From positions 10,643 to 74,642 of the forward strand of contig JAYZQJ010000191.1 of NCBI GenBank assembly GCA_036149055.1: a stretch of 64,000 nt of DNA, in the 5' to 3' direction. A program made the translations under genes and the position numbers. Source of the DNA: Myxococcota bacterium. Lineage in GTDB: Bacteria > Myxococcota_A > Polyangia > Polyangiales > Sandaracinaceae. Below, in pieces: positions 3 through 62,386 of this stretch (the stretch's first letter is position 1; every line of letters starts with the position of its first letter). The notes beneath the pieces are model-generated. The model did not search any database. It worked only from the letters and a program-made list of their open reading frames with translations, and was not told the DNA's origin.

Positions 3-1202
3 GCGCGCTCCAAAGCGGGGCGGCAGCCACGCGCCGCCGACCATGAGGTCGCGCCGTCCGCCGCCGACGTCCTCCGACCAGACCACGACGTGGCCGCTGG
101 AGTCGACCGTCGGGCCGTCGCTCTCCACCGTCGACAGCGGGGTCTCGACGCCGGTCGAGAGATCGAACCGGAGGGCGCGCGAGGCGCTGCCGGCGCCGCG
201 GGTGTAGACCACGACGTCGCCCCCGAGGGTGGGCGGGCCCTCGTCCTCGGGGGTGGTGGTGAGCCGCGTCTTCAGGCCGGTGGCCAGATCGAAGACGAAG
301 ACGTCGGCGTTGCCGTGCTCGTTCGAGAGGTAGGCGACCCGGGAGCCCGACACCGACGGGGCTTGGAGATCCTCGGGGCCGGTGAGCAGCGGCGCGCCGC
401 CCGGGCAGCTCTCGTCGACGAAGCCGTCGCAGTCGTCGTCGAGGCCGTCGCATCGCCCGCCGCTCGCCTCGTCCTCGACGTAGTCGGCGCCGTACTCGTC
501 GTGGCCGCACGCCCCGAAGCCGAGGGCGCCGCGGCAGGTCGCGCGCGCGTCGCCGCAGACGCCGGCGGAGAGGGGGCAGACCGGGCCGACGAGCTCCTCG
601 TCCACCACGCCGTCGCAGTCCTCGTCGGTCCCGTCGCAGGTCTCGGTCTCGGGGTGGATGGCGCCCTCGCAGGCGCCCCACGCGCCGTCGAGGCAGCGCT
701 GCACGCCGCCTTCGCAGGCCCCGACCTCGAGGCCGCAGCGCTGCGAGGTCCCCTCCCGACAGGCGCAGGTCTCGTCGATGGCGCCGTCGCAGTCGTCGTC
801 CCGGCGGTTGCATACCTCGGCCGTCGGGCCGACCGCCCCGACGCACGCGCTCCACGCGCCGTCCCGGCAGCGCTCCACGCCGGGCAGACACTCGCCCATC
901 GCCTCGCCGCAGGGCCGCTCCTCCCCGTGCCGGCAACCGCAGCCCTCGTCGGTCTCCCCGTCGCAGTCGTTGTCGAGGCCGTCGCAGGCCGTCTCGACCG
1001 GCTGGTGGTCGCGGCCGTAGTCGCAGGTGGAGGCGCCTTCGACACAGCGAGGCACCGCGCCACGGCACACGCCCTCGTCGAGGCAGGCGGCCGGCGCGCA
1101 GCCGGCGTCCGGCTCGCCCGCGTCGGAGCCCGCGAATTCGTGGACGGAGTGGCACCCGGTCGCGAAGACGAGGGCGGCGAGGAGGGGGAGCGGTCGCGCC
1201 AT
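3..1202 (-). CDS. Cys-rich lipoprotein with MopE-like (CDGxDxDCDGxxDE) repeats followed by a TolB-like beta-propeller; runs off the left edge
   Basis: Manual translation from ATG 1202: MARPLPLLAALVFATGC (lipobox), four repeats such as CDGLDNDCDGETDE and CDGLDDDCDGFVDE, then VAYLSNEHGNADVFVFDL. No stop before position 1, so it is absent from the ORF track. Confidence 0.8.
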   Translation of the reverse strand, partial: MARPLPLLAALVFATGCHSVHEFAGSDAGEPDAGCAPAACLDEGVCRGAVPRCVEGASTCDYGRDHQPVETACDGLDNDCDGETDEGCGCRHGEERPCGEAMGECLPGVERCRDGAWSACVGAVGPTAEVCNRRDDDCDGAIDETCACREGTSQRCGLEVGACEGGVQRCLDGAWGACEGAIHPETETCDGTDEDCDGVVDEELVGPVCPLSAGVCGDARATCRGALGFGACGHDEYGADYVEDEASGGRCDGLDDDCDGFVDESCPGGAPLLTGPEDLQAPSVSGSRVAYLSNEHGNADVFVFDLATGLKTRLTTTPEDEGPPTLGGDVVVYTRGAGSASRALRFDLSTGVETPLSTVESDGPTVDSSGHVVVWSEDVGGGRRDLMVGGAWLPPRFGAR

Positions 1203-4779: not shown

Positions 4780-7293
<2,514 letters not shown>

Positions 7294-7296
7294 GCC

Positions 7297-8418
7297 ATGG
7301 CCGAGACGTACGACGCCGAGGTGGCGATCATCGGCGCCGGCCCGGCCGGCACCGCCGCGGCCGCGCACCTCGCGAGCCTCGGGATCGACGACGTGGTCCT
7401 CGTCGACCGCCACGACTTCCCGCGCGACAAGACCTGCGGCAGCGGCATCTCCCCCAAGGGGATCAAGGTGCTCAAGGAGCTCGGCATCTGGGAGGAGGTC
7501 GAGCCCCACGCCTACTGGATCCGCGGCATCCGCATCGTCACGCCGGGCGGCCGCGACAGCTGGCAGTCGGCCGGCGACGTCGCCGAGGCCGTGGTCTGCC
7601 ACCGCCGCACCCTCGATCACATCCTCTGGAAGAAGGCCGTCTCGGGCGGCGTGCGCTTCCTGCCCAACTTCGACGCCGCCGAGGCGATCGAGGAGGGCGG
7701 GCGCATGGTCGGCTTCAAGGCCCGCGACGGCCGCGAGGTCCGCGCCCGCTACACCCTGATCGCCGGCGGCAGCCACTGCCGCGTCGGCCTGCCGGAGCTC
7801 CGGCCGCGCCGCACCATCCAGGCGATCATGGGCTGGTGGGACGACGCGGACTTCAAGCCGCACCACGTCGAGATGATCTTCGACCGGATGATCGAGCCCT
7901 ACTACGGCTGGCTCTTCCCGGAGTCGGAGACGCGGGTGAACATCGGCATCACCTACGAGGATCCGCCCGGCGAGAAGAAGCACGCGCGGAAGCTCTTCCA
8001 GCAGTTCCTCGACAAGTACTACGGCGAGCGCCTCGCCAACGCGACGCAGGTCGGCGGCTGGAAGGGCCACCCGGTGGTCTGGAGCTACAAGATCGACAGC
8101 CTCACCGCGCCCGGCCGCGTCGCGATCGGGGAGTCCGGGCTGATGACCCACCCGGCGACCGCCGAGGGCATCTACCAGGGCATGCGCTCCGGCATGCTCG
8201 GCGCCGAGGCCGTTCACTCGATCCTCCGCCGCGGCGTGGCCGAGCAGGAGGCGGGCGCGATCTACGAGCGCGAGTGCAAGAAGGCGTTCCAGCTCTCCTT
8301 CTGGGGCGGCGGCGTCTTCCGCAAGATGGTGCGCACCGACGCGCTCGACTGGGCGGTCGCGATCGGCGAGCAGCCGATGGTGCAGTCGGTCACCGCGAAG
8401 CTGATGGCGGCCATGTGA
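7297..8418 (+). CDS. geranylgeranyl reductase-family FAD oxidoreductase
   Basis: GAGPAG, FPRDKTCGSGIS, YYGWLFP, NIGI, GESGLMTHPATAEGIY. Confidence 0.85.
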   Translation: MAETYDAEVAIIGAGPAGTAAAAHLASLGIDDVVLVDRHDFPRDKTCGSGISPKGIKVLKELGIWEEVEPHAYWIRGIRIVTPGGRDSWQSAGDVAEAVVCHRRTLDHILWKKAVSGGVRFLPNFDAAEAIEEGGRMVGFKARDGREVRARYTLIAGGSHCRVGLPELRPRRTIQAIMGWWDDADFKPHHVEMIFDRMIEPYYGWLFPESETRVNIGITYEDPPGEKKHARKLFQQFLDKYYGERLANATQVGGWKGHPVVWSYKIDSLTAPGRVAIGESGLMTHPATAEGIYQGMRSGMLGAEAVHSILRRGVAEQEAGAIYERECKKAFQLSFWGGGVFRKMVRTDALDWAVAIGEQPMVQSVTAKLMAAM

Positions 8419-11400
8419 TGACGCCGCGGTACGACGTCGGGATCGTCGGCGCGTCGGTCGCCGGGTGCACCACCGCGCTGGCGTGCGCGAAGGCGGGGGC
8501 GCGCGTGCTCCTGCTCGAGGCCGACCCGAACGAGGCGGCCGCGCAGCACGTCGGAGCGTGGCTCCACCCGGACGCGATGGACGCGCTCGAGGGCCTCGGC
8601 GTCGACCTCGTGCCCCCCGTGGGCTACCCGACCGGCAAGGGCTACGTGCTCTTCCCGGAGGACGGCACCGAGGCCGTGGTCCTGCCGTACTCGGTGGGCC
8701 GCTTCGGCTTCTCGCTCCCGCAGGGCCTCCTGGTCGAGACGCTGCGGCAGCACTGCGACGCCGACGAGGCGGTGACCCTCCGCTCGCCGGTCCGCGCGAG
8801 CCGCGTCGACGCGGGTACGCTCACCTGGCAGGAGCGCGGCCGCCCGCGCAGCGCCCGGGTCGAGCACGTCGTCTTCGCCGCCGGCGCGGACGTGCAGCCG
8901 ATCAAGCGCGGCGCCGGCTACGTCTTCGGCGCGATCGAGCGGCCGCCGACGCACCGCATCGCCAGCCTCGATCTGGTGGGCGCGACGCTGCCCTTCGAGG
9001 GCTTCCGACACGTCTTCGTCGGCGGCTGCGGCGTCGCGATCGCGCACCGCGTCGGCCCGGCCACCGTGCGCCTGGCGCTCGACGTGCCGCTCGGCTTCCG
9101 CGTGCCCCGCGAGGGCGGCGTGCAGCTGCTCGAGGCCTACGCGCCGTCGCTGCCGGAGGAGCTCGCCCTGCCCTTCGCCGAGGCGCTGCGCCGCGGGGCG
9201 CCGTCCTGGTCGCACGGCCGCATCCAGCCGCGCGGCAACATGATCCGCGGGGGCATCGCGCGGGTCGGCGACGCCGCCGGCAGCCTGCACCCGCTCACCG
9301 CGGCCGGCCCGAGCCTCGCGATCGCCGACGGCGTCGCCTTCGCCGAGTCCCGCTCGCCGGCCTCGTTCGCGCGCAAGCGCCGCCGCGACACCCGCCTCCC
9401 CGAGGCGATCGCGATCGGGCTCGCCGAGGTGCTGACCGACGAGGCGCCGGAGAGCGTCGCCATCCGCCGCGCGATGTACAACATGTGGCGCGACGATCCG
9501 GGCGAGCGGCTCCGCACGATGAGCTACATCGCCGGCGAGAACGAGGGGCTGCTGCGCTTCGGCGGCTCGTGTCTCCGGGTCATGCTCTCGAGCGCGGCCC
9601 GGGTGGCGAAGAGCGGCGCCCGCGGCGAGCTGCGCCACGCGCACCGGACCGGCTCGGCGCTGCTCGAGCGCATCGGCTGGATGGTCGGCGGCGCGCTCGG
9701 CTGGAGCGATCTCCTGCCCGACGCCTTCGCGGAGAAGCTCGAGGCGCGCGGCACCACGCGCTACCTCGGCGCGCTGCACCACACCGGCGAGGCCGAGGTC
9801 GTCGGGCTGCCCGCCCGGAGCGGCGGCGCGTCGTCGATCCAGACCGCGCTCGCGCGCGGCGCCCAGGCGCTGGTGAACGAGCAGGCCGAGGACGGCTCCT
9901 TCGAGGGGGAGGTCGTCTGGTGCCCGATGCTCGCCGCGCAGTACGTGCTCGCCTCGCACGTGATGGACCGGCCGATCGATCCCGAGCGTCGGCGGCTGCT
10001 CCTGCGTCACTTCGAGGACACGTTGCTGCCCGGCGGCGCGTGGGGCCTGCACGAGAAGAGCGAGCCCTACCTCTTCGTCACCACGCTCGTGTACGTCGCG
10101 GCCCGGCTCCTCGGGGTCGACAAGGACGACGCGCTCATCCGCGAGGCGAAGGCGTTCATCCGTCAGGAGGGCGGCGCGGTCGGCATCCCGAGCTGGGGCA
10201 AGCTCTGGCTCGCGCTCGTCGATCTCTACGCCTGGGAGGGCGTCAACCCGGTGGTGCCCGAGCTCTGGGCGACGCCGCGCTGGCTGCCGATGCACCCGAG
10301 CCGCTACTACTGCCACACCCGGCTCATCTACATGGGCATGGCCGCGCTCTACGGCGGGCGCGTGCGGCGCGAAGCGAACGCGACCATCCGCTGCGTGCGC
10401 GACGAGATCTTCCTCCAGCCGTACGGCGAGATCGACTTCGACGCCGCGCGCGAGACCCTCCGCGAGGGGGACGTGCACGACGCGCCGGGGCCGCTCCTGA
10501 AGCTGAGCTACCGGCTCCTCACCCGCTTCGAGCAGGCCAAGTCCGACGGCCTCCGGCAGAGGCTCCTCGGCGAGCTGCGCGACAAGATCCGCTACGAGCT
10601 CCGCTCGACGCACTACACCTGCATCTCGCCGGTCAGCGGCATGCTCGGCCTCCTCGCGCTCCACGCGAACGACCCGTCGGATCCCGACCTCGTGAAGGGG
10701 CTCGAGGGCTTCGAGGGCTGGATCTGGGAGGACGAGCAGGAGGGCGCGCGCATCGCCGGCGCCCGGAGCGCGACCTGGGACACCGCGTTCGCCGCCCAGG
10801 CGCTCGCGGCGGCCGCGGGTCACGTGGACGTCAGCGCGCCCCTCGAGCGCGCCGACGCCTTCCTCGCCAGCCAGCAGATCCGGCGCGGCACCGGCCTCGA
10901 GGGGCAGCACGACCGGCTCGACCCGACCGGCGGCTACTGCTTCGCCGGCGTCTGGCACGGCTGGCCGGTCAGCGACTGCACCGCCGAGGCGATGCTCGCG
11001 CGGCTCCACAACCCGGCCGCGAAGCCGAGCGCCCGCGCGATGGAGCAGGCGGCCGAGTTCGTGCTGCGCTGCCAGAACGCCGACGGCGGCTTCGGGAGCT
11101 ACGAGGCGCGGCGGCACGCGCGGCTCTCGATCGACTGGCTCAACCCGAGCGAGATGTTCGGCGCGTGCATGACCGAGCGCTCCTACGTCGAGTGCACCGC
11201 GTCGTGCGTGCAGGGCCTCGCCGCCTTCCGCGAGCGCTACCCGGACCGGCTCCGCGGGCGCGTCGACGCGGCGATCGAGGCCGGCGTCGCCCGCCTCCGC
11301 GCCGAGCAGCGCGCCGACGGCTCCTTCGAGGGCATGTGGGGCGTCAACTTCATCTACGGGACGCTCTTCGGGGTCCGCGGGCTGCTGGCCGGCGGCGTGC

Positions 11401-11813
11401 CCTGCACCGACCCGCAGATCCGCCGCGCCTGCGCGTGGCTGCTCGAGCGCCAGCGCCCCGACGGCGGCTGGGGCGAGCACTTCGCGAGCGTGCTCGAGGG
11501 CCGCTACGTGGAGCACGAGGAGGCGCAGGTCGTGCAGACCGCGTGGGCGCTGACCTGCCTGCTCGAGGCCGAGGAGCCGGACTTCGCGGCGCTCGAGCGC
11601 GCGGCCCGGCTGCTCGCCCGGACCCAGCGGTCCGACGGAACGTGGCCGAAGCAGGATCCCGAGGGGATCTTCTTCCACACCGCGCTCCTCGAGTACCGCC
11701 TCTACCGCGCATACTTCCCGCCCTGGGCGCTCGGGCTCTTCGCGAGCCGCGCCGAGGCCAGGGCCGCCTGGACCGAAGGGGGCCGCGCCGAGCGCCGCCC
11801 CGCCATCGTCTGA
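8418..11813 (+). CDS. osc: squalene epoxidase-like domain (degenerate) fused to oxidosqualene cyclase
   Basis: TGATG overlap start; N-terminal FAD monooxygenase fold; from ~9835 QW repeats, IPSWGKLWL, YCHTRLIY, HGWPVSDCTAE (DCTAE at 10974-10988), WGVNFIYGT. Confidence 0.92.
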   Translation: MTPRYDVGIVGASVAGCTTALACAKAGARVLLLEADPNEAAAQHVGAWLHPDAMDALEGLGVDLVPPVGYPTGKGYVLFPEDGTEAVVLPYSVGRFGFSLPQGLLVETLRQHCDADEAVTLRSPVRASRVDAGTLTWQERGRPRSARVEHVVFAAGADVQPIKRGAGYVFGAIERPPTHRIASLDLVGATLPFEGFRHVFVGGCGVAIAHRVGPATVRLALDVPLGFRVPREGGVQLLEAYAPSLPEELALPFAEALRRGAPSWSHGRIQPRGNMIRGGIARVGDAAGSLHPLTAAGPSLAIADGVAFAESRSPASFARKRRRDTRLPEAIAIGLAEVLTDEAPESVAIRRAMYNMWRDDPGERLRTMSYIAGENEGLLRFGGSCLRVMLSSAARVAKSGARGELRHAHRTGSALLERIGWMVGGALGWSDLLPDAFAEKLEARGTTRYLGALHHTGEAEVVGLPARSGGASSIQTALARGAQALVNEQAEDGSFEGEVVWCPMLAAQYVLASHVMDRPIDPERRRLLLRHFEDTLLPGGAWGLHEKSEPYLFVTTLVYVAARLLGVDKDDALIREAKAFIRQEGGAVGIPSWGKLWLALVDLYAWEGVNPVVPELWATPRWLPMHPSRYYCHTRLIYMGMAALYGGRVRREANATIRCVRDEIFLQPYGEIDFDAARETLREGDVHDAPGPLLKLSYRLLTRFEQAKSDGLRQRLLGELRDKIRYELRSTHYTCISPVSGMLGLLALHANDPSDPDLVKGLEGFEGWIWEDEQEGARIAGARSATWDTAFAAQALAAAAGHVDVSAPLERADAFLASQQIRRGTGLEGQHDRLDPTGGYCFAGVWHGWPVSDCTAEAMLARLHNPAAKPSARAMEQAAEFVLRCQNADGGFGSYEARRHARLSIDWLNPSEMFGACMTERSYVECTASCVQGLAAFRERYPDRLRGRVDAAIEAGVARLRAEQRADGSFEGMWGVNFIYGTLFGVRGLLAGGVPCTDPQIRRACAWLLERQRPDGGWGEHFASVLEGRYVEHEEAQVVQTAWALTCLLEAEEPDFAALERAARLLARTQRSDGTWPKQDPEGIFFHTALLEYRLYRAYFPPWALGLFASRAEARAAWTEGGRAERRPAIV

Positions 11814-11857
11814 GAATTCTGTCGTCGAGCCGTACCGATGCAGTCCAAGGAGCAGTC

Positions 11858-14800
11858 ATGAACCGCAGCAGCTACGACGTCGTCGTCGTCGGAGCCGGGC
11901 CCGCCGGGTGCGGCGCCGCGCTCGCTCACGCCCGCCGGGGCGCCTCCGTGCTCGTGGTCGAGGCCGACCCTCGCGCCGCGAAGCGCTTCGCCGGCGAGTG
12001 GCTCCACCCCACCGGCGTCGCCGTGCTCGACGCGCTCCGGGTCGGCCGCCTCGAGCAGGCGAGGGCCCGCGCGGGCTACGGCTTCGTCATCTTCCCCGAC
12101 GACGGCAGCGAGCCGATCGAGATGGCCTACACCGAGGGCGTCGCGCTGAGCGCCGAGCACCACGCGATCGTCGAGGCGATGCGCGACGCGCTCCGGGCCG
12201 AGGACCGGGTGGAGCTGCTCATCGGAGGCCGCGCGGTGCGGGTCGCCGACGGCGTCATCCGGATCGAGGACAAGAAGAGCGGCCGCGCGACCGACGTGCG
12301 CGCCGGACGGATCATCGGCGCCGACGGCCGCAAGTCGACGGTGCGCGAGAGCCTCGGCGTCCCGACCCAGAAGAGCGCGCCGCTGAGCTACATGGCCTCG
12401 GTCGAGCTGCGCGACGTGGAGCTGCCCTTCGAGGGCTTCGGTCACCTCGTCCTCGGCGGACCCGGCCCGGCGCTCTTCTACCGCATCGGCGACGGGCTCA
12501 TCCGCGGCTGCCTCGACGTGCCGATCGCGCTCGGCCCGAACGCGCGCTCGCTCGAGGCGCTCTGGGACGGCTTCGGCCCGGTGATGCCGGAGTCGATGCG
12601 CCCCGCGCTCCGCGCCGCCCTCGAGCGCGGCCCGAGCGGCTGGGCGATCAACCAGTTCCGCCCCCGCGCGCTCTTCGGCGCCGGCGACGTGCGGCTGGTC
12701 GGCGACGCGGTCGGCCACGTGCACCCGATGACGGCCACCGGCATGACGCTCGGCCTGCTCGACGCCAAGGCCCTCGCCGAGAGCGACAGCCTGGAGTCCT
12801 ACGCCAAGGCGCGCCGGAGCTACGTGCCGGAGCTGCTGTCGAACGCGCTCTACCACTGCTTCCGCCGTGACGACCCGAGCGCGACCGCGATCCGCCGCGC
12901 GATGTTCGAGACGCTCCGCAAGGAGCCCCGCGAGCGCCGCCGCACGATGGACATCCTCGCCGGCACCGATCAGAGCCGGCGCAGCTTCGGCTCGGCCTTC
13001 CTCCGCATCGCCGCCCGCGCGGTCGGCGGCTCCCTCGAGAGCGAGCGCCCGCTGTCGCGCCTCATGAGCTTCGGCGAGTGGATGCAGTGGCCCGCCGCGC
13101 TGGTGGTGCCGAGCGGCCTCGACGCGAGCGTGCGCGCCCAGAGCAGCACGACGCACCCGATCCCGCAGCTGGCCAAGCTCACGCCGACCGCGGCCCCCGT
13201 GGCCCCGCCCGAGACGCCCGGCGGGAAGGCGCCGGCGCTCGACGTGCCGCTCACCCCGGCCCTCGAGCGCGGCACCGCGGCGCTCCTCCGGGAGCTCGAG
13301 CGGCTCGCGATGCAGTTCGGCGAGGTGCCCGACGCGACCCTGGCCGGCCCGGCGCTCTCCTGCATCCGCGCGATCACCGCGACCCGGATGCGCCTCGGCA
13401 TGGCCGCGCGCATGACGCTCGGGCGTCGCCGCCTCGCCACCGAGGGCTTCCCCCGCCTCCTCGACGCCGAGCCGCACGCGCGGCACCTGGCGGAGCTCTG
13501 CCTGGTGCTCCTCGACGGCGCGCCGTGGGACGAGCAGCCGATCGCGAGCCTCGACGAGGGCGTGCGCGCGCTGCTCGACTGCCAGACCGAGAGCGGCGGC
13601 TTCGCGCGCTCCCGGGGCGTCGCCTCCTCGCCCGGCGCGGCCGGAGAGCTCGAGCTGACCGCGCTCGCGTGTCGGGCGCTCGAGGTGGTCGCGCGCAAGG
13701 GCAAGAGCGACGCCGACCTCGGCCGCGCGCTCGAGCGGGCCGCCGACTGGGTCGTCTCGCTGCAGGGCGACGACGGCGACTTCGGCGGCGACGTCTCGCG
13801 CACCGCCTGGGCGATCGAGGCCCTCATCGCGGCCGGCGTGCACCCCGGCGATCCGGCGGCGCGTCGCGCGGTCCGCTGGCTCTCGGTGGCGCTCGACCCG
13901 AGCGGCGATCCGGTCGAGGCGGCGCGCGCCGTCCGGGCGCTCCTCGCCGCCGGCGTCTCCTCCAACGAGGCGATCGTCTCCGCGGCCCGCGGCCTCGCGT
14001 CGCTCGAGGAGACCGACTGGCGCGTGGCGCGCGAGGTGGTCGAGGCGCTCGCCGCCTGTGAGGTCCGCCGGGCCGAGCGGCCGCAGAAGCGCGCCCGTCG
14101 CCGCAAGCGCGGCAGCGACAAGTCGCCGATCGGGCCCGAGCTGAAGGCGGACTGGAAGTTCTGCCGCCAGGCGCTCGGCGAGGTCTCGCGCACCTTCGCG
14201 CGGCCGATCGAGATGCTCCCGCCGAAGCTCGAGGTCGCCGTCTCGCTCGGCTACCTCCTCTGCCGCATCGCCGACACCGTCGAGGACCACGTCGCGGTGC
14301 CCTTCGAGGTGAAGGACGATCTGTTCGCGAAGCTCTGCGCGGTGCTCGAGCACGGCGCGGATCCGGCGCCCTTCGCCGAGGCGTTCACCCACATCGAGGG
14401 CGACGACGCGGAGCTGTCCCTGGCCCGCGAGCTGCCGCGCGTGATGCGGGTCTACGACGCGCAGGACGAGGCGACGAAGAAGGCGTGCACGCGCTGGGTC
14501 ACCGAGATGGCCCGCGGCATGAGCCTCTACACGCACCGCAAGCCCGAGGCCGACGGCGTCGCGGCGCTGCACACGATCCCGGACCTCGAGCGCTACTGCT
14601 ACTACGTGGCGGGCACGGTCGGGCACCTCCTGACCGACCTCTTCGTCGACGCGATCGGCGAGGACCCCGAGGGCGCGCTCGCGATCGCGATGCGGGACCA
14701 CGCGGAGGGCTTCGCGACCGGCCTGCAGCTCACGAACATCCTGAAGGACGTGACCGACGACCTCGCGCGCGGGGTCTCGTTCATCCCGCGCACCGAGTGC

Positions 14801-15178
14801 GCGCGGCAGGGCTTCTCGGTCGCCGATCTCGCCGACCCGAAGGTGCGCGACCGGGCCCACGCCGCCGTCTCGCCGGTCTTCGACATCGCCAAGGAGCGGC
14901 TCGACGCGGCGCTCGAGTACTCGCTGCTCATCCCGTCCGAGCACCGCCAGATCCGGCTCTTCTGCCTGCTGCCGCTCTGGATGGCCGGCCGCACCCTGGC
15001 GCTCGGCCGCGGCAACGACGCGATGTTCGAGCCCGACCTGCCGGTCAAGATCACCCGGAGCGAGGTCGAGTCGCTGATCGCCGAGTGCATGACGCTCGCC
15101 GAGGACGACGACGCGCTGCGCGCTCGCTACGCGCGCCTGTTCGAGCCGGCCCAGGGCCAGCGGCGGGAGATGCGATGA
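11858..15178 (+). CDS. squalene epoxidase :: degenerate terpene-cyclase repeat domain :: squalene synthase fusion
   Basis: AAGGAG RBS; GAGPAG, GEWLHP, GADG, GDAVGHVHPMTATGM; central QW-like remnants; C-terminal SRTF, CRIADTVED, YCYYVAGTVG, GLQLTNILKD. Confidence 0.9.
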   Translation: MNRSSYDVVVVGAGPAGCGAALAHARRGASVLVVEADPRAAKRFAGEWLHPTGVAVLDALRVGRLEQARARAGYGFVIFPDDGSEPIEMAYTEGVALSAEHHAIVEAMRDALRAEDRVELLIGGRAVRVADGVIRIEDKKSGRATDVRAGRIIGADGRKSTVRESLGVPTQKSAPLSYMASVELRDVELPFEGFGHLVLGGPGPALFYRIGDGLIRGCLDVPIALGPNARSLEALWDGFGPVMPESMRPALRAALERGPSGWAINQFRPRALFGAGDVRLVGDAVGHVHPMTATGMTLGLLDAKALAESDSLESYAKARRSYVPELLSNALYHCFRRDDPSATAIRRAMFETLRKEPRERRRTMDILAGTDQSRRSFGSAFLRIAARAVGGSLESERPLSRLMSFGEWMQWPAALVVPSGLDASVRAQSSTTHPIPQLAKLTPTAAPVAPPETPGGKAPALDVPLTPALERGTAALLRELERLAMQFGEVPDATLAGPALSCIRAITATRMRLGMAARMTLGRRRLATEGFPRLLDAEPHARHLAELCLVLLDGAPWDEQPIASLDEGVRALLDCQTESGGFARSRGVASSPGAAGELELTALACRALEVVARKGKSDADLGRALERAADWVVSLQGDDGDFGGDVSRTAWAIEALIAAGVHPGDPAARRAVRWLSVALDPSGDPVEAARAVRALLAAGVSSNEAIVSAARGLASLEETDWRVAREVVEALAACEVRRAERPQKRARRRKRGSDKSPIGPELKADWKFCRQALGEVSRTFARPIEMLPPKLEVAVSLGYLLCRIADTVEDHVAVPFEVKDDLFAKLCAVLEHGADPAPFAEAFTHIEGDDAELSLARELPRVMRVYDAQDEATKKACTRWVTEMARGMSLYTHRKPEADGVAALHTIPDLERYCYYVAGTVGHLLTDLFVDAIGEDPEGALAIAMRDHAEGFATGLQLTNILKDVTDDLARGVSFIPRTECARQGFSVADLADPKVRDRAHAAVSPVFDIAKERLDAALEYSLLIPSEHRQIRLFCLLPLWMAGRTLALGRGNDAMFEPDLPVKITRSEVESLIAECMTLAEDDDALRARYARLFEPAQGQRREMR

Positions 15179-15882
15179 TGGGCTTCGAGCTTCCGATGAT
15201 GGACAACCTCTGGTTCCACGTCGCGATCGGCATCACGCTCTTCGTCGACGCGGTCCTCCTGGTGTTCCTCAGCTGGGCCTACCGCTCGCCGCGCTTCGCG
15301 AAGTACCACATTCGCAAGCCGATGGAGATGCGGGTCAGCAAGTCGAATTACCGCTGGACGGTGGGCGTCATCGGCCTGCTGTCGAGCAGCTCGACGGTGG
15401 TGCTCATCTACGGGCTCGCCCCGCTGACCATCAGCGAGACGACGACCACGCCCTGGTGGCTCATCGCGCTGCAGTTCTTCGGCGTGCTCTTCGTCTACGA
15501 CTTCGCCTACTACTTCATGCATCGGACGATGCATCACCGGAAGCTCATGCCGCTGGTGCACGAGATCCATCACCGCGTCCGCGTGCCGAGCGCGCTCGAG
15601 AGCCTCTACCTCTCGCCGGTCGAGATGCTCGCGGGCCTGCTGCTGCTGATGGCGGTGACGTGGGCGCTCGGCCCGGTGCACTGGATCGCCTTCGTGGCGG
15701 TCTTCTTCCTCTACTCGACGCTGCACATCGTCATCCACTCGGGGATGACCTTCCCGCACCCGGTCTTCCGCGTGATGAACCACCTCACGATGAAGCACCA
15801 CAAGCACCACCTGAACAAGCACGGTCACAACTTCGCGTCCGTGACCCCGCTGCCGGACATCGTGTTCGGCACCTCTGTCTGA
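15175..15882 (+). CDS. sterol desaturase / fatty acid hydroxylase superfamily membrane di-iron enzyme
   Basis: ATGA overlap; His boxes HRTMH, HEIHH, HSG, HHKHH; hydrophobic segments. Confidence 0.88.
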   Translation: MMGFELPMMDNLWFHVAIGITLFVDAVLLVFLSWAYRSPRFAKYHIRKPMEMRVSKSNYRWTVGVIGLLSSSSTVVLIYGLAPLTISETTTTPWWLIALQFFGVLFVYDFAYYFMHRTMHHRKLMPLVHEIHHRVRVPSALESLYLSPVEMLAGLLLLMAVTWALGPVHWIAFVAVFFLYSTLHIVIHSGMTFPHPVFRVMNHLTMKHHKHHLNKHGHNFASVTPLPDIVFGTSV

Positions 15883-15889
15883 GGCAGTC

Positions 15890-17560
15890 ATGTTCCTTCG
15901 CAGACCCGAAGTCCCGGAAGGGCTCAAGCCCGCGCCGGAGCTGTCCGGCGGGCTCCCGCTCGTCGGTCACACCGTCGAGTTCGTGCGCGACACGATCGGC
16001 ATGCTCGAGCGCGCCCACCACGAGCTCGGCGAGGTCGCCGCGGTGCGCGTCGCCGGCCGCCGCATGGTCGCCCTCTTCGGCCCCGAGGCCCACGAGGCGG
16101 TCTTCCGCGCGAAGGACCAGGTCCTCGACCCGCGCGAGGCCTACAAGATCATGACCCCCGTCTTCGGCGAGGGCATGGTCTACGACGCCTCGCCCGAGAA
16201 GATGAACGAGCAGTTCAAGATGCTGCTCCCGGCGCTCAAGGACCGCCGCATGCGCACCTACGGGGAGACCATCCTCGACGAGGTCGAGCGCAGCGTCGCG
16301 GACTGGGGGGACGAGGGCGAGATCGACATCGTCGACTACTGCCGCGTCCTGACGAACTTCACCTCCTCGCGCTGCCTCATCGGCGAGGAGTTCCGCGAGC
16401 GCATGACCGACGAGTTCGCGCGCATCTACCACGACCTCGAGCGCGGCGTGACGCCCCTCGCCTACATCGACGCGAACCTCCCGATCCCGAGCTTCAAGAA
16501 GCGGGACGCGGCCCGGGTCCGGCTCGTGAAGCTGATCGGCGCGATCATCGACGAGCGCGCCCGGACCGGCCGGACCGGTGAGGACTTCCTCCAGACCCTG
16601 ATGGAGGCCCGCTACCAGGACGGCGCGGCGCTCACCCACGACGAGATCACCGGGATGCTGCTCGCGGCGATGTTCGCCGGGCACCACACCAGCTCGGTCA
16701 CCACCGCGTGGGCCCTCATCGAGCTCTGCAAGAACCCCGCGTACATGCGGCGCGTGGTCGCGGAGCTCGACGAGACCTACGGCGAGAGCGGCCAGACCGA
16801 CTACCAGTCGCTCCGCAACATCCCGGTCACCGAGCACGCGGTGAAGGAGACCCTGCGGCTCTACCCGCCGCTCTTCCTGCTCATCCGGGTGGTGCAGAAG
16901 GACTGGACCTTCAAGGGGCACCACCTGCCGAAGGGCACCTGGATCCTCGTGTCACCGACCGTCTCGCAGCGCGACCGCGAGGTCTTCACCCACCCTTACA
17001 CCTTCGACCCCGACCGCTTCGCCGAGCCGCGCAACGAGGGCAAGAAGGACTGGGCGTTCATCGCCTTCGGCGGCGGCCGCCACAAGTGCCTGGGCAACGC
17101 GTTCGCGCTCCTCCAGGTCAAGGCGATCCTCGGCACGCTCCTGCGGCGCTACGAGTTCGAGCTGGTCGACCCGAAGGTGAAGCCGGACTTCCACGGCCTC
17201 GTCATCGGCCCCTCCGAGCCCTGCCGGCTGCGCTACCGCCGCCGCGAGGAGAAGGTCGCCGCCCGCCCGGCCCCGAAGGTCGAGGAGGCGCCGAAGCCGG
17301 CGCCGAAGAAGAAGGAGGAGCGAGTCCAGCTCCGGATCGCGCTCGACCTCGATCTCTGCCAGGGCCACGCGGTCTGCGTGAACGAGGCGCCGGGCGTCTT
17401 CTACGTCTCGGACGAGACCGGCAAGGTCGCCCTCCACACCGATCGCCCCGACCCGAGCCAGAACGACGCCGTGCGCGCCGCGGCCGACTACTGCCCGCAG
17501 CGCGTCATCCAGGTCCACGAAGAAGACGAAGCGCCCCTCACCTGCCCCGTGGCGCACTGA
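15890..17560 (+). CDS. cyp51: sterol 14alpha-demethylase CYP51 fused to a 3Fe-4S ferredoxin
   Basis: YKIMTPVFGEGMVYD, MFAGHHTS, ETLR, FGGGRHKCLG; P/K-rich linker; CQGHAVC...CP. Confidence 0.93.
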   Translation: MFLRRPEVPEGLKPAPELSGGLPLVGHTVEFVRDTIGMLERAHHELGEVAAVRVAGRRMVALFGPEAHEAVFRAKDQVLDPREAYKIMTPVFGEGMVYDASPEKMNEQFKMLLPALKDRRMRTYGETILDEVERSVADWGDEGEIDIVDYCRVLTNFTSSRCLIGEEFRERMTDEFARIYHDLERGVTPLAYIDANLPIPSFKKRDAARVRLVKLIGAIIDERARTGRTGEDFLQTLMEARYQDGAALTHDEITGMLLAAMFAGHHTSSVTTAWALIELCKNPAYMRRVVAELDETYGESGQTDYQSLRNIPVTEHAVKETLRLYPPLFLLIRVVQKDWTFKGHHLPKGTWILVSPTVSQRDREVFTHPYTFDPDRFAEPRNEGKKDWAFIAFGGGRHKCLGNAFALLQVKAILGTLLRRYEFELVDPKVKPDFHGLVIGPSEPCRLRYRRREEKVAARPAPKVEEAPKPAPKKKEERVQLRIALDLDLCQGHAVCVNEAPGVFYVSDETGKVALHTDRPDPSQNDAVRAAADYCPQRVIQVHEEDEAPLTCPVAH

Positions 17561-17574
17561 AGAGAGAGCAGCAC

Positions 17575-19149
17575 ATGCAGAACGTCGCCATCGAGCTCGA
17601 GAGCACCCCCGAGGTCATCGACTGCCGCGAGCCGGCCACCCACGCGCCCCTCGGCAAGGTGCCGGTGGACGGGCCGGACGTGGTCCGCGCCAAGGTCGCG
17701 CGGGCGCGCGTCGCGCAGAAGAGCTGGGGGGAGAGCACCTTCTCGGAGCGCCGCCGCCTCCTCAAGACCATCCTCGCCCACGTGCTCGACCACGCGGACG
17801 AGCTCTGCGAGGTCGTGGTCCGCGACGCCGGCAAGACCCGCGAGAACGCGGTGATGGGCGAGATCTGGCCGGTCTGCGAGAAGCTCCGCTGGACGATCGC
17901 GAACGGCGAGAAGCACCTCCGCCCCGAGCGCATGTCGAGCGGCCTGTTCCTGCACAAGAAGGCCACCGTCCTCTACCAGCCGCTCGGCGTCATCGGCGTG
18001 ATCTGCCCGTGGAACTACCCGCTGCAGAACGTGCTCGGGCCGACCATCCCGGCGCTCTTCGCGGGCAACGCGGTGGTGGTGAAGGTCTCCGAGCAGGTCG
18101 CGTGGTCGTCGGCGCGCATGCAGCGCATCTTCGACGAGGCGTTCGACGCGCTCGGCTACCCGAAGGACACCGTGCAGATCGTCAACGGCTACGGCGAGAC
18201 CGGCGCCGCGCTGGTCCGCTCGGGCGTCGACAAGGTGATCTTCACCGGCTCGGTCCCGAACGGCCGGAGGATCATCGAGGGCAGCGTCGAGAACATCACG
18301 CCCGTCATCCTCGAGCTCGGCGGCAAGGACGCGTTCATCGTCTGCGAGGACGCCCACATGGAGCAGGCGGTGCACGCCGCGCTCACCGGCGTGTTCATCG
18401 CGGCCGGCCAGAACTGCATGGCCGCCGAGCGCGTGCTCGTGCACGCGAAGGTCTACGACGACTTCGTCGGCCGCCTCGTGAGCGAGGTGAAGAAGCTCCG
18501 CGTGGGCGACGCGCCGCAGGGCGCGGTCGACGTGGGCGCGCTCGTCTCGCCGCAGCAGGTCGAGATCGTCGAGCGGCTCGTGAACGACGCGGTCGAGAGC
18601 GGCGCGCGGGTCCTCGTCGGCGGCAAGCGCGGCGATCGCCCGGGCCAGTTCTTCGAGCCCACCGTGCTCGTCGACGTCACCCCGGACATGGCGATCATGA
18701 ACGAGGAGGTCTTCGGCCCGGTGATGTGCGTGCACCGCTACGAGACCGACGACGAGGCGATCGAGATCGCCAACGGCACCCGCTTCGGCCTCGGCTCCAC
18801 CGTGATGAGCCGCTCGGGCACGCGCGCCCGCCGCCTCGCCGAGCGCCTCCGCGTCGGCTCCTGCACCATCAACGACTTCGGCTTCACCTACATGGCGCAG
18901 GACCTGCCCTTCGGCGGCGTGGACGCCAGCGGCTTCGGTCGGCTCAACGGCCGCGAGGGCCTGCGAGGCTGCACCAACCAGAAGGCCATCCTCGAGGATC
19001 GGCTGCCGCTGCACATGCCGGCCAAGCTCTACCCGGTGAAGCCCGAGGTCTACCCGCTCGTGCGCGGGGTGCTCCGGACGCTCTACCAGCCGACCCTGAC
19101 CGGCCGCGCCAAGGCGGTGGTCGAGCTCGCCAAGAACCTCCGCCGATGA
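17575..19149 (+). CDS. aldehyde dehydrogenase (ALDH22/Msc7-like)
   Basis: PWNYP, FTGS, LELGGKD, GQNC, EEVFGP, LPFGG. Confidence 0.9.
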   Translation: MQNVAIELESTPEVIDCREPATHAPLGKVPVDGPDVVRAKVARARVAQKSWGESTFSERRRLLKTILAHVLDHADELCEVVVRDAGKTRENAVMGEIWPVCEKLRWTIANGEKHLRPERMSSGLFLHKKATVLYQPLGVIGVICPWNYPLQNVLGPTIPALFAGNAVVVKVSEQVAWSSARMQRIFDEAFDALGYPKDTVQIVNGYGETGAALVRSGVDKVIFTGSVPNGRRIIEGSVENITPVILELGGKDAFIVCEDAHMEQAVHAALTGVFIAAGQNCMAAERVLVHAKVYDDFVGRLVSEVKKLRVGDAPQGAVDVGALVSPQQVEIVERLVNDAVESGARVLVGGKRGDRPGQFFEPTVLVDVTPDMAIMNEEVFGPVMCVHRYETDDEAIEIANGTRFGLGSTVMSRSGTRARRLAERLRVGSCTINDFGFTYMAQDLPFGGVDASGFGRLNGREGLRGCTNQKAILEDRLPLHMPAKLYPVKPEVYPLVRGVLRTLYQPTLTGRAKAVVELAKNLRR

Positions 19150-20750
19150 TCGAGACGTTCGACTACGTCGTGGTCGGCGGGGGCTCCGCCGGCTGCATCG
19201 TCGCGGCCGAGCTGAGCGAGGATCCGCGCGTCCGGGTGCTGCTCCTCGAGCGCGGGGACGACGCGCAGGAGCACCCCGAGACGCTCCGCGCCGACGGCTA
19301 CAAGGACGCGTTCGCGAACGACGCGCTCGTGCTCGAGCGCTTCAGCGTGCACGCCGATCGCTGGGGTGACCGCCGGCTCTTCATGGGCTCGGGGCACGGC
19401 CTCGGCGGCAGCGGCAACATTAACGGCATGGTCTACACCCGCGGCGCAAAGGTCGACTACGACGCCTTCCCCGAGGGCTGGCGCTGGGCCGACGTGGTGC
19501 CCGACTTCGAGCGCATCGAGGCGCAGCTCCGCCCGCGCCCCCGCGCGGCGACGGCCTTCACCGAGGTCTGCCTCGACGCGGCCGAGGAGGCGGGCTTCGC
19601 GCGCTCGAAGGACCTGAACGACGGCGACCTCGGCGGGGTGCTCGGCTACGAGCACATGAACTACGAGGGTGACGACCGGCGCAGCAGCTACGTCGCCTTC
19701 CTCCTGCCCGCGCTCGACCGCGGCAACCTCGTGGTCCGCACCAACGCGAAGGTCGAGCGCCTCACCGTCGACGAGCGGGGCGTCACCGGCGTGCGCTACG
19801 CCTGGGACGGCGGCGACCACGAGGCGCGGGCGGTCCGCGAGGTGGCGATGTGCGCCGGCGCCCTCGAGACGCCGCGCCTGCTGATGCTCTCGGGCATCGG
19901 GCCGAGCGGCGCGCTCCGGCACGTGGGCCTGCCCGCGGTGCACGAGGTGCCCGGGGTGGGCGAGAACCTCCACGACCACCCGAACGTGAGCCTCTTCTTC
20001 CGCGGTCAGCGCGAGGTCGACTGCAACTACCCGCAGCTCTACGGCTTCCACCGCGCGAACGAGGCGACCGACCTGCCCGAGGGCGCGAGCGACACCTGCT
20101 ACGTCTTCTACCCGGCCCGCAGCTCGCTCAAGGAAGCGATGATGCGCATGCTGCCGACGCTGGTGCTGCCGGAGCCGCTCTACGATCTGCCCGCGATGCC
20201 CAAGCTGGTGCGCGGCGGCGTGCGCCTCGCCTTCGGGCCGCGCGCGATGCGAGAGGCGGTCAAGCGCGTCTACGGCATCGTCGTCATCCTCGGCAAGCCC
20301 AAGAGCCGCGGCCGGCTCCGGCTCACCGCCTCGAGCCCGAGCGCCCCGGCGGCGATCGACCCGGGCTACTTCGCCGACCCCGAGGACATGGAGACGATGA
20401 TCCGCGGCGTCGAGCGCGCCCGCCGCATCGCCCGCGCGCAGCCGCTCCGGTCGTGGGGCAACACGGAGCTCTTCCCCGGCCTGCTCGGGCGCTCGCGCGA
20501 CGCGATCGAGGGCTGGATCCGGCAGAACGTGATGACCACGTATCACTACGCCGGCACCTGCGCGATGGGCGACAACGGCGCGAGCGTGTGCGATCCGCGC
20601 CTCCGGGTGCGGGGCGTGCGCGGCCTCCGGATCGCCGACGCCTCGGCCATCCCGTTCACGCCGGTCTCGGCCCTCAACGCCCCCTCCATGCTGGTCGGCC
20701 ACCGCGCCGCCCGCTTCATGCGCGAAGAGTCCCCAAGCGTGGACGCCTGA
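19146..20750 (+). CDS. GMC family oxidoreductase
   Basis: ATGA overlap; DYVVVGGGSAG, GLGGSGNINGMVY, GENLHDH, YHYAGTC, LNAP. Confidence 0.92.
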   Translation: MIETFDYVVVGGGSAGCIVAAELSEDPRVRVLLLERGDDAQEHPETLRADGYKDAFANDALVLERFSVHADRWGDRRLFMGSGHGLGGSGNINGMVYTRGAKVDYDAFPEGWRWADVVPDFERIEAQLRPRPRAATAFTEVCLDAAEEAGFARSKDLNDGDLGGVLGYEHMNYEGDDRRSSYVAFLLPALDRGNLVVRTNAKVERLTVDERGVTGVRYAWDGGDHEARAVREVAMCAGALETPRLLMLSGIGPSGALRHVGLPAVHEVPGVGENLHDHPNVSLFFRGQREVDCNYPQLYGFHRANEATDLPEGASDTCYVFYPARSSLKEAMMRMLPTLVLPEPLYDLPAMPKLVRGGVRLAFGPRAMREAVKRVYGIVVILGKPKSRGRLRLTASSPSAPAAIDPGYFADPEDMETMIRGVERARRIARAQPLRSWGNTELFPGLLGRSRDAIEGWIRQNVMTTYHYAGTCAMGDNGASVCDPRLRVRGVRGLRIADASAIPFTPVSALNAPSMLVGHRAARFMREESPSVDA

Positions 20751-43226: not shown

Positions 43227-46200
43227 TCATCGCCGGGTCAGCCCGCAGGTTGCGGGCAGCGCGGTGAATCGAGTGGGGGAGGGCGGGAGGAGGCGCGACG
43301 GGCGCCAGCGCTCCCACGGCCCCCAGAAGAGGGCCTCGGGGTCGGGCAGCGTGATCTTCGCTGCCTCCGGATCGAAGCGCGCGCGGGGACCGGCGCCGCC
43401 GTCGCCCCGGTCGAGCGCGGTGACGAAGCGCTCGAGCAGCTCCGCCTCGAGCCGCTCGCTCGACAGCTCGCCGAGGAAGGCGTCGTAGCCGCGTCCCAGC
43501 CCGAGCGGGCTCGCCTCCGAGAACGGGTCGAGCACGTAGCCGTAGAGGTCGGTCCCCCCGGCGACGCCGAGCGGGCTCGCGCTCAGGTAGCTGCCGGTCT
43601 CGGGGTCGTAGACCCGGAGCCACGCGTGCTGGAGCCTGGTGTCGGGGTCCTCGAAGTGGCCGGGGAAGCGCCACGGGCAGCGCACCTGCTCCACGTCGAG
43701 CGACATGGTGCCGAACACGTCGAGCTCGCCCTTCCAGGCGACGTTGCCCTTCGCGTCGGTCAGCTCGGTGGGCACGCCGATCGGGTCGGTCAGCACGGCG
43801 TGGGCGGAGCCGGGGCCGAGGCGTCCGACGAGCTGGCCGGCCTCCCAGATCCAGCTCACCACCGCGCCGTCCTCGATCTCGTGCAGCAGCGTGAGCCCGT
43901 CCCAGACGTACTCGGTGGTGCTCACCGGCTCCCACACCGGCTCGTCGAGGCCCTCGATCTCGACCCGCGTCTCGCGGCGGCGCGCGACCCTCCGGCCCAG
44001 GCCGTCGTAGTCGTAGGTGACGCGCTCGTCGTCCGACAGCCACACGCTCGTGAGGCGGCCGGCCCCGTCCCAGCGGTAGCGGGTCTCGTCGCCGATCGCC
44101 GTCTTCTTGGAGACGCGCCGGCCCTCCGCGTCCCAGCCGTACTCGTTGCCGTAGCTCTCGGCGACGCGGAGGCCGTCGTAGCGCACGTCGTCCCGGCCCT
44201 CGGCGCGGAACACCCGGCCGACCTCGTCGAGCGCCCGCACCAGGGGGCCGACCTGCACGAGCCGTCCGCGCGCGTCGTGACGATGGGTGGCGCCGCCGCG
44301 GCGCACGAGCGTCGCCTCGCCGTGCCAGGCGAAGTCCATCGACGCGAGCGACCGCTCGCCGAACCTCACCTCGCGCCGGACCGCGCGGCCGAGCCCGTCG
44401 CGCTCCCAGCGGAGCGACAGCCCGCCCGGCAGCTGCCGCACGCGCTCACGCCCCCGCGCGTCCCGGTCGAAGCGGAGCTCGAGGGTCTGCTCCCCCTGGG
44501 TCGCGACCAGCTTCGTCGCCGCGCCGAGCGCGTCCCGCTCGATCCGGACCTGCAGCCCGAGGCTGGAGTCGTAGGCCACGCGATCACCGCGCGGGTCGTA
44601 GGTGGAGCGCACCTCATGCTGCTCGAAGCGCTCGCTCGTGGGCCGGCCCTCGCCGTCGTGCTCGAGCGTGAGCACCCGGTCGGCGTCCTGCGCCCGCGCG
44701 AGCTTCCCGCCCGGCGTCCACGCGAAGCGCTGGAAGCTCCCGTCGCCGTGCTGGAGCTCCACCGGCCGCCCGGCGCGATCGCGCTCCACCTCGGTGCGCG
44801 AGGCGCCCCGCATCGCGCGCCTCACGAGGCCGCGGTGGTCGCGGAGCGCGTGGCGCTTCTCCTCGGAGAAGCCGCTCTCCTCGGTCACCCGCCCGGCCGC
44901 GTCGCGCACCAGCTCCCAGAAGTCGAAGGCCTCGGACTCGACCATCTTCACGCGGCCCTCCGCGTCGTGGTGGAGCCGGGCCCCCTCGCCGCCCTGGGCC
45001 ACCTGGGTGAGCCGCCCGAGATCGTCGCGCTCGAGGCGCAGATCGCGCGCCCCGTCGTGCAGCCGCGTGACCCGGCCCTCGGTGTCGTTCTCGTAGGTGC
45101 GGCGCACCGACTCGGGCAGGTGGAGATCGGCGACCCGTCCATCCGGCGCGTAGCGGACCGTCGTGATCTGCCCGAGCTCGTCGGTGAGATCGGTGGGCCG
45201 CCCGAGCGCGTCCCGCGACGCGTGCCGCGCGCCCGCGGCCCCGATGATCGACGTCGCGGCGCCCGACGCGTCGCGCTCGATGGCGAGGCGCGTCTCTCCC
45301 GGCAGTAGCAGCGACCGGAGCGGTCCCTCGCCCTCGTAGTCGAAGACCACGCTCCCGCCGCAGCGATCCACCGCCGCGCCGAGCCGACCGAGGTGATCCC
45401 ACGAGCGCTTGCGCGCCTGCCCGTCGGCGTCGGTCTCCTTCGTCATCCTCCCGGCCGGGTCGTGCTCGAGCGCGATCGAGCCGGCGTCGGGCCCGCTCAC
45501 GTCGGCCAGGTGGTAGGCGGCGTCGTAGAGGAAGGTGGTCTCCCCGTCGACGGTGGTCTGCGAGGCGAGGAGCCCGGAGCTCTCGTCGAAGACCCGCGCG
45601 GTCTCGTTCGCGAAGCGGTCGAGCACCCGGTCGACCTGGTAGGCGGGCGTGGCGCGCGCCGAGAAGGAGCTGCCGTTCGCGTCGACGATGCCGATCACGC
45701 GATCGTCTTCGCTCCACAGGTACTCGCGCTGCTTCTCGTCCTCGCCCCACCGCTCGCCGACGCAGCGGGCGCGCGCCCCCTGCCCGTCGTAGGTGAAGCG
45801 CCGGACGAGCCCGTTCGGCAGCTGCTGCTCGGTGAGCAGGCGCGCCTGGTAGCGATAGCGCGTCGCGCGGCTCCGCCCGTCGACGGCCTCGCGGAGCTGG
45901 CCCGAGACGTCGATCTCGTAGCGCGCCGCGACCGTGTGATCGGCGCCGTCGCGGGTCGGCGCGAAGACGCGGGTGAGCCGGCCGCGCTCGTCGTGCTCGA
46001 AGCGGACGTGCCGGCCGCCGGGCAAGACGAGGCGGTCGAGCCGCCCGTGCGTGTCGTAGCGCACGTCGAGCGCGCTCCCGTCGGCGGCCCAGATGCGGGT
46101 CAGCTTCGCGCGCGCGGCGCCGACCGAGACGCTCTCCGCGATCGACGTGAAGCCGAAGCGCTGGCCGGCGGCCGTCCGCACCTCGTAGGCGTCCGACGCG

Positions 46201-48853: not shown

Positions 48854-48856
48854 GTG

Positions 48857-49942: not shown

Positions 49943-49946
49943 GTCG

Positions 49947-52703: not shown

Positions 52704-52718
52704 CGTCGCTCCCCGTGC

Positions 52719-52734
52719 TGCGCTCCGAATGCCA
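52719..52734 (-). promoter_or_regulatory. possible sigma54 element upstream of vgrG
   Basis: TGGCATTCGGAGCGCA (GG-N10-GC). Confidence 0.25.
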
Positions 52735-52791
52735 GCACGCCACCCGCTTCGGCCCCCCTCGACCGCGGTTGCGTGCCCCGGCGCATTTTTC

Positions 52792-62333: not shown

Positions 62334-62386
62334 GGAGACGTTCTCGGTGATCGGCGGGCGGCTTGTAAAGCGCGGCGCGCCCCCGT

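Follow-up and report, generated by a model that had tools for sequence, protein, structure and literature searches.

A conserved myxobacterial fusion of squalene epoxidase, a cyclase beta barrel and squalene synthase, encoded beside a mirror-image epoxidase-cyclase partner

The window analysed here is a 64,000-nucleotide stretch of contig JAYZQJ010000191.1 (positions 10,643 to 74,642, forward strand) from a Myxococcota bacterium of the family Sandaracinaceae (assembly GCA_036149055.1). Two long neighbouring genes on its plus strand are the subject of this work. Gene B (11858..15178, +) encodes a chain of 1106 amino acids consisting of a squalene epoxidase domain, a beta barrel of the oxidosqualene cyclase family, and a squalene synthase domain, as assigned from its open reading frame (ORF), third-position GC, Pfam, structural modelling and public contigs. 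Upstream of it, gene A (8418..11813, +) encodes 1131 amino acids, in which a decaying epoxidase domain is followed by an intact oxidosqualene cyclase, a predicted lanosterol synthase according to Pfam, TIGRFAM, site scoring and alignment.

The ORF of gene B extends from an ATG at 11858 to a TGA ending at 15178 with zero internal stops, and an AAGGAG sequence (11847-11852) lies 5 bases before the ATG. Third-position GC is 0.95-1.00 in this single frame over the full length, including both linkers. Pfam recognises FAD_binding_3 at residues 6-307, SE at 153-399 (E 9e-19) and SQS_PSY at 775-1067 (E 2e-42), while the middle of the protein gives weak SQHop_cyclase matches at 623-683, below the cut-off. 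Together with the folds and motifs described below, these data bear out the sequence-only reading, an earlier annotation made from the letters of the window, which proposed a single polypeptide with epoxidase, cyclase-like and synthase domains. Four of 24 listed public runs were compared against the locus as contigs, not raw reads. Contigs from three of them, belonging to three studies other than the possible source of the assembly, cover gene B end to end, both linkers included, with 0 gaps; the 16 listed substitutions within the gene comprise 15 silent changes and one missense change, and 42 further differences over the 10.5-kb stretch fall outside that list. None of the listed substitutions introduces a stop. 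An assembly artefact or frameshift as the source of gene B is ruled out by third-position GC, homologous loci and the gap-free contigs. The locus is also found among the contigs of an RNA library, although contigs cannot demonstrate transcription.

The three domains are joined by a proline-rich linker (13106..13252, +) of low model confidence and a poorly conserved basic linker (14078..14134, +) with nine Lys/Arg in residues 741-760. In the full-length model, the predicted local distance difference test score (pLDDT) falls below 50 at residues 392-462. The predicted template modelling score (pTM) of this model is 0.45, which, together with the low-confidence linker, leaves the packing of the domains in gene B unsupported by the model. 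No transmembrane helix is predicted in gene B (maximum 19-residue hydropathy 1.3), unlike eukaryotic squalene synthase, which has one. For comparison, we classified 228 homologues from three homologue searches, the last of which contributed the 120 listed of 256 matches. They comprise 116 epoxidase-barrel-synthase proteins, 95 epoxidase-cyclase fusions, 10 epoxidase-synthase fusions lacking the barrel, and 7 others.

The epoxidase domain (residues 1-416; 11858..13105, +) is closest to human squalene epoxidase (SQLE) by sequence and fold, an assignment that also draws on site counts. SQLE (6C6N) is both its best PDB sequence match (E 1e-22; next match 5e-8) and the top match of the fold comparison (Z 35.5, root-mean-square deviation (rmsd) 2.8, 407 aligned residues), and its PF08491 score is 68 bits against a cut-off of 20.1. 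Along the chain we observed GxGxxG, R43/G46/E47, Y91 (human Y195), GADG..S..R, Y208 (human Y335) and GDA..HP..G. The FAD motifs (GxGxxG, DG, GD) and the equivalents of Y195, Y335 and E165 are thus all retained. The counterparts of SQLE R161, G164, E165, Y195, Y335, D408 and P415 are kept in gene B and in 115-116 of the 116 three-domain homologues; the Y335 equivalent and the GD-motif Asp are present in all 116, the DG-motif acid in 115. At the position of SQLE Q168, gene B carries His, as do nearly all bacterial homologues examined. Y195 and Y335 of SQLE are tied to activity in the available text of PMC6327030. From this residue pattern, the N-terminal domain likely epoxidises squalene to oxidosqualene.

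The squalene synthase domain (14135..15178, +) has fungal and human squalene synthase as its best sequence matches and keeps their catalytic residues: SRTF (777-780), DTVED (806-810), Y913, DVTDD (964-968) and FC..P (1035-1039). All motifs quoted in the sequence-only reading are present; its second Asp-rich motif, given as NILKD, is more correctly DVTDD, which begins at the final D of that string. The flap SRxF, both Asp motifs, the catalytic Tyr and FC..P are kept in 125-126 of 126 fusion proteins. The first Asp motif (D806/D810) is present in all of them, and D964, D968, Y913 and F1035-C1036 are present in 125, the sole exception being a frameshifted record. Structurally, the domain gives Z-scores of 34.3 and 33.6 to fungal and human squalene synthase, compared to 26.4 for CrtM, and eukaryotic squalene synthases outrank CrtM and HpnC in sequence and fold alike. 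Scores for other families (HpnD 57, HpnC 46, CrtB 46) lie well below its 119.8 bits. The likely reaction of the domain is the joining of two farnesyl diphosphates to squalene. Enzymes of this fold vary in product, and its score is under the curated squalene-synthase cut-off; presqualene diphosphate, dehydrosqualene or phytoene as the product is nevertheless very improbable, given that eukaryotic squalene synthase is the nearest relative in sequence and fold, that the genome carries a separate CrtB-like gene, and that no other squalene source was found in it. The earlier proposal that one chain makes squalene and epoxidises it is accordingly well supported as a prediction, with both outer domains keeping the residues of active enzymes. 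This synthase subfamily is prone to fusion elsewhere: nine further proteins show the combinations HMG-CoA reductase-polyprenyl synthase-synthase, reductase-synthase, polyprenyl synthase-synthase-SDR, synthase-SDR, or two synthases in tandem.

The middle of gene B (residues 466-740; 13253..14077, +) forms a 12-helix alpha6/alpha6 barrel, identified by hhalign, modelling and fold comparison as a cyclase beta domain lacking the gamma domain. Modelled alone, it reaches a pLDDT of 89.6 and a pTM of 0.88 with 12 helices. It superposes on squalene-hopene cyclase (SHC; Z 24.2, rmsd 3.1, 257 aligned) and on human oxidosqualene cyclase (OSC; Z 23.9, rmsd 3.0, 268 aligned), in the latter case over the chain range 70..725. 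A profile of 116 middles is collinear with cyclase positions 335-644 (hhalign 99.8%, E 3e-30), and QW repeats are present. In BLAST alignments of gene B, as of gene A, the match continues past the epoxidase into the first helix of the cyclase. Compared to about 645 residues for a cyclase, the barrel has about 275, and both by profile and by structure its alignment is confined to the first helix and the C-terminal half. The barrel represents an oxidosqualene cyclase beta domain from which the inserted gamma domain has been removed. It had been described earlier as a cyclase remnant; its descent from a cyclase stands, but according to profile alignment, model and fold comparison it is a complete beta barrel rather than decayed scrap. 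The barrel profile scores higher against cyclases of epoxidase-cyclase fusions (median 107 bits, n=92) than against stand-alone cyclases (77, n=18) or SHC-like proteins (52, n=6), and this preference indicates such a fusion as the source of the barrel. An origin from squalene-hopene cyclase is disfavoured by these profile scores, although the Z-scores to SHC and OSC tie.

The DCT[AG] motif is found in none of the 116 three-domain barrels. The catalytic position of gene B is occupied by His543, and the loops that bear the active-site aromatics of cyclases fall in gaps of the profile alignment. From these features, the barrel is predicted to be non-catalytic. Class II cyclase activity of the barrel on its own, as in the one-domain enzymes MstE (6SBB) and the myxobacterial 8PAJ and 8PAK, is extremely improbable. 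The fold is shared (Z 21.6 to 8PAJ, 18.8 to MstE) and 51 of the 116 homologues have Asp at the catalytic position, but the window protein has His there, and neither an acid nor an aromatic cage is invariant. MstE, 8PAJ and 8PAK, which likewise consist of the beta barrel alone, keep catalytic acids and cavity loops; the gene B barrel keeps neither, and the loss of the loops makes it about 70 residues shorter.

Within the barrel lies a basic helix, ARM...RR (residues 513-535; 13394-13462, +), which is new and conserved and recurs in 109 of 116 barrels. The conserved arginines R518, R523, R524 and R533 lie on or beside one helix. Such a helix, the missing transmembrane segment and the descent from a triterpene-binding enzyme could suit a barrel that anchors the protein to the membrane, or one that binds squalene in a pocket and passes it to the epoxidase of its own chain. 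We regard this as unlikely, as the barrel has lost the aromatic loops of the cavity and is acidic overall (32 Lys/Arg against 40 Asp/Glu), and the pTM of 0.45 with the low-confidence linker leaves domain packing unsupported. The most likely role of the barrel is that of a folded spacer or scaffold. In four homologous loci, the linker between barrel and synthase is lengthened by short tandem peptide repeats, and the second half of the barrel is eroded.

Gene A, which the sequence-only reading had overlooked, is the mirror image of gene B. Its cyclase (9828-11762) comprises both domains, matches human lanosterol synthase with E 7e-127 and exceeds the TIGR01787 cut-off, while remaining below that of TIGR03463 (713 vs 851). 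It carries VSDCTAE (D853 at 10974), Val at human position 453, the lanosterol type, and His232, and on these residues gene A is a predicted lanosterol synthase that likely cyclises oxidosqualene to lanosterol. Its epoxidase domain (8418-9707) is decaying. Eight of 16 scored sites are changed, including the equivalents of E165 and Y335. G14, R43, E47, the DG motif, Y208 and Y332 are lost, while the full length, W48-H50-P51, Y91, GD and HP are kept.

A-type genes form one clade (support 0.999; 99 in a second tree), of which 44 members remained after removal of 9 duplicate rows, with the neighbouring gene known for only part of them. Scoring used 12 sites outside the DG motif, chosen from columns invariant in B and the human structure. 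At least one of these sites is changed in 43 of the 44 A-clade proteins, compared to 5 of 59 other epoxidase-cyclase fusions, 5 of 120 B proteins, and none of 18 direct-fusion or stand-alone epoxidases. Each A-clade sub-lineage has lost different conserved residues, and the branch length is 1.17 against 0.45 in the sister group (~2.6x; sister n=3). The gene A epoxidase is likely dead by these residue patterns. It may instead still be active or newly employed, for example in the supply of reduced flavin, so that the pair would be redundant or specialised rather than complementary; its full length with W48-H50-P51, Y91, GD and HP in place, its low ratio of nonsynonymous to synonymous substitution rates (dN/dS) and the near-intact copy of Sandaracinus amylolyticus would fit. 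We consider this quite unlikely in view of the residues missing from the window copy, the differing losses by sub-lineage and the lengthened branches. Loss of the DG motif as a criterion for a dead epoxidase was dropped, since this loss is older and harmless where a genome has a single epoxidase. In seven homologous loci, the DG-motif Asp, the usual hallmark of this flavoprotein class, is missing from the sole epoxidase.

In 13 of 14 loci, B has an A-type gene next to it or close by, and the same holds for 3 of 20 loci and one locus in two further sets. Across 13 paired loci, mean identity is 0.52 and 0.49 for the leftover domains and 0.65-0.70 for the active domains, which shows a faster divergence of the leftovers. 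As dS saturates at this GC content, distant pairs are unusable for dN/dS; the single unsaturated same-genus pair gives 0.18 for the A epoxidase, 0.16 for the barrel and 0.10-0.26 for the active domains, which indicates that both leftover halves are under purifying selection. This selection and the proximity of the two genes could mean that the leftover halves serve for docking, with each pseudo-domain binding the other protein in an A-B complex that takes farnesyl diphosphate to lanosterol. The ARM...RR helix is invariant in 17 aligned A-adjacent barrels and absent from all 12 of the tested B loci in which no A-type neighbour was seen. We treat docking as a tentative possibility that is not favoured: the motif tracks B phylogeny and its 109 carriers include Cystobacter fuscus, which has a stand-alone cyclase; ten fusions have no barrel and others an eroded one; and a dN/dS below 1 is expected for any domain obliged to stay folded and in frame.

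The epoxidases of A and B are 33% identical. In the trees, gene A nests among lone epoxidase-cyclase fusions, and gene B groups with other synthase-linked epoxidases. Tandem duplication of one epoxidase-cyclase gene was rejected by the approximately unbiased test (p ~1e-50; 34 of 71 rows). An origin of B inside the epoxidase-cyclase clade, suggested by a midpoint-rooted tree, was not upheld, as with nine outgroup rows the groups are sisters. Because A and B are only distantly identical in the epoxidase and are not sisters, they represent two old lineages brought together. We postulate that an epoxidase-cyclase fusion gained a C-terminal squalene synthase and lost the cyclase gamma domain. Later, gene B would have come to adjoin a distantly related epoxidase-cyclase gene, whose epoxidase would then have become redundant and lost conserved residues lineage by lineage.

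The three-domain fusion is common in myxobacteria. Its carriers include metagenome-assembled genomes (MAGs) of Sandaracinaceae and Polyangiales, S. amylolyticus and Cystobacter; in a phylum-wide sample of 401 genomes, full-length barrel-plus-synthase matches occur only in the family to which the window belongs, so that this sample does not bear on the Cystobacter-type or Polyangiales-type genes. Other arrangements are seen in related genomes: some carry epoxidase and synthase as separate genes side by side, some fuse the two directly, some have an eroded barrel next to a stand-alone cyclase, and some have lone epoxidase-cyclase fusions with a separate synthase. Two cultured species encode the same three domains. 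C. fuscus DSM 2262 D187_003106 (EPX59202.1) has 1163 residues, and S. amylolyticus AKF09140.1, of the B type, has 1146, with AKF09142 as the A type; a cluster-mate of D187_003106 and one of AKF09140.1 are 51% and 58% identical to gene B, respectively. In C. fuscus, a stand-alone cyclase, two genes from D187_003106, takes the place of an A-type partner. One MAG (L001:9971-13994) has the synthase part of its gene B scattered over three frames, and one C. fuscus assembly carries the gene as two pieces of 529 (P0236) and 650 (P0244) residues, with several other assemblies whole.

D187_003106 is listed simply as the epoxidase in Table 4 of Wei 2016, for a strain reported there to produce squalene and cycloartenol. 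S. amylolyticus makes cholesterol from one gene cluster according to the text of bioRxiv 2024.11.01.621555, in which no description of the fusion was found; the cluster drawing in its Fig. 2a may label it. The supplement of Hoshino and Gaucher 2021 (PMC8237579) places each cultured accession in two separate sequence sets, and the word "fusion" is absent from its searchable text. Term look-up found no description of the fusion in the text and supplement of PMC8237579 and PMC7306690 or in the searchable text of PMC10202945, PMC4919349, PMC13277303 and PMC12414744. Literature searches likewise returned none, within a scope outside of which fell figures, subscription papers and bioRxiv supplements. 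It seems, then, that no study has yet dealt with these proteins as a fusion, and the cultured members are annotated under one activity only. The earlier suggestion that the architecture is uncharacterised agrees with the absence of such a paper from these searches; the architecture itself, however, is widespread and extends to cultured species.

Genes A and B lie within a same-strand run of sterol-type genes. The cluster begins with a fusion of HMG-CoA reductase and an SdmB/3beta-HSD-like SDR (4780..7293, +); the two parts are fused in most related loci, and the SDR is degraded or split off in three. A geranylgeranyl-reductase-family flavoprotein gene (7297..8418, +), whose stop overlaps the gene A start, likely encodes the C-24 sterol reductase Bsr, judging from family and position. 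Downstream, a gene of the fatty-acid-hydroxylase/sterol-desaturase family (15178..15882, +) overlaps the gene B stop with its start and is followed by a P450-ferredoxin fusion assigned by Pfam (15890..17560, +), likely CYP51 from its architecture and context. Aldehyde dehydrogenase and GMC oxidoreductase genes (17575..20750, +) complete the run. The genome, which is 96% complete, contains two PF00494 genes, namely gene B and a CrtB-like gene adjoining a desaturase, and two PF08491 matches, genes B and A, which leaves gene B as the sole candidate found for both steps. Elsewhere in the window, a squalene-hopene-cyclase-like gene with a DCDD motif (60447-62504, -) is located about 45 kb from the sterol cluster. 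The region 43227-52880 (-) holds a DUF2169-DUF6531-Rhs gene and a VgrG-like gene, with lower GC (0.64-0.67) at 48000-52000.

Taken together, we find it probable that the intact gene B makes and epoxidises squalene around a barrel predicted to be non-catalytic, and that its product is cyclised to lanosterol by gene A, whose own epoxidase is likely dead. The basis for this is the single frame, the identities and folds of the domains, their residue patterns, the distribution of the fusion and the trees, from which the enzyme activities are predicted. Several observations weigh against it. Asp is kept at the catalytic position by those 51 of 116 barrels, and the synthase domain, at 119.8 bits, does not reach the TIGR01559 cut-off of 286.75. 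An intact epoxidase-cyclase-synthase ancestor is absent among the best 150 matches and the 120 listed of 256; the 12 long matches that were domain-scanned are other fusions. B is frameshifted in one of 14 loci and split in one C. fuscus assembly. The choice of the 12 sites drew on B and human SQLE, and sequences that share ancestry do not count as independent cases; in S. amylolyticus, the A protein retains all 12 and may still be active. Finally, the DG-motif Asp is missing from the only epoxidase matched in each of two genomes and from five stand-alone epoxidases.

Under the favoured reading, the HMG-CoA reductase of the cluster would feed the mevalonate route, and gene B would condense two farnesyl diphosphates to squalene and then epoxidise it. 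Gene A would cyclise the gene B product to lanosterol, which the P450-ferredoxin, SDR, hydroxylase-family and geranylgeranyl-reductase-family genes would tailor. Squalene and oxidosqualene would move between sites via the membrane, and the barrel may be kept as a folded spacer or scaffold that packs against neighbouring domains or the membrane. A stronger proposal, in which the two proteins are subunits of one machine, joined by the two pseudo-enzyme domains, and farnesyl diphosphate is converted to lanosterol with none of the greasy intermediates set free, is doubtful. If true, two unrelated fusion genes would have given rise to a natural sterol metabolon in bacteria, and the beta-alpha layout of plant terpene synthases would have a second, independent origin.

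Compared to known systems, gene B shares its architecture with D187_003106 and AKF09140.1, whose species both make sterols according to Wei 2016 and bioRxiv 2024.11.01.621555. MsbE is an epoxidase-cyclase fusion in the available text of PMC7074536, and such fusions were trimmed out in the methods of PMC10070321. Gene A shares the whole MsbE-type architecture, with its epoxidase decaying; gene B shares the N-terminal epoxidase and the junction into the first cyclase helix, but has neither gamma domain nor catalytic motif and carries squalene synthase in addition. SQLE (6C6N) and fungal and human squalene synthase (7WGH/7WGI, 3VJ8, 3WC9) are the best matches of its outer domains, with catalytic residues kept. 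In eukaryotes these are separate proteins; gene B is one chain lacking a transmembrane helix, with His at Q168. The closest parallel in layout is found in plant terpene synthases. The accessible text of PMC9945934 and PMC12414744 describes how these kept the beta domain after gamma loss, before a class I alpha domain, and how degraded domains were retained after division of labour. Gene B is an independent repeat of this beta-alpha layout, with the same domain order and apparently the same history, in which class II beta-gamma was joined to class I alpha and gamma was lost. It differs in its separate origin from a sterol cyclase, in having squalene synthase as alpha, and in the epoxidase in front. 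As for a plant-like beta-alpha interface, the full-length model has the pTM of 0.45 given above, and no two-domain match was among the fold-search matches listed.

Gene B is, as its sequence and conservation suggest, a real, conserved and probably bifunctional gene that combines ordinary chemistry in a seemingly unstudied architecture. Squalene synthase and squalene epoxidase catalyse consecutive sterol steps with a water-insoluble intermediate, and a natural fusion in culturable bacteria offers a direct test of the effect of tethering on flux, as well as a part that is ready for use in triterpene production. The sterol genes of myxobacteria hold a central place in the debate over the origin of eukaryotic sterol synthesis; the fusion proteins entered published trees domain by domain, and the fusion goes undiscussed in the searchable text. 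The A-B pair would represent two enzymes turning pseudo-enzyme, with a graded series from the near-intact S. amylolyticus copy to the heavily changed one of the window. With its mirror-image arrangement, the pair allows the reciprocal decay of domains to be tested cleanly.

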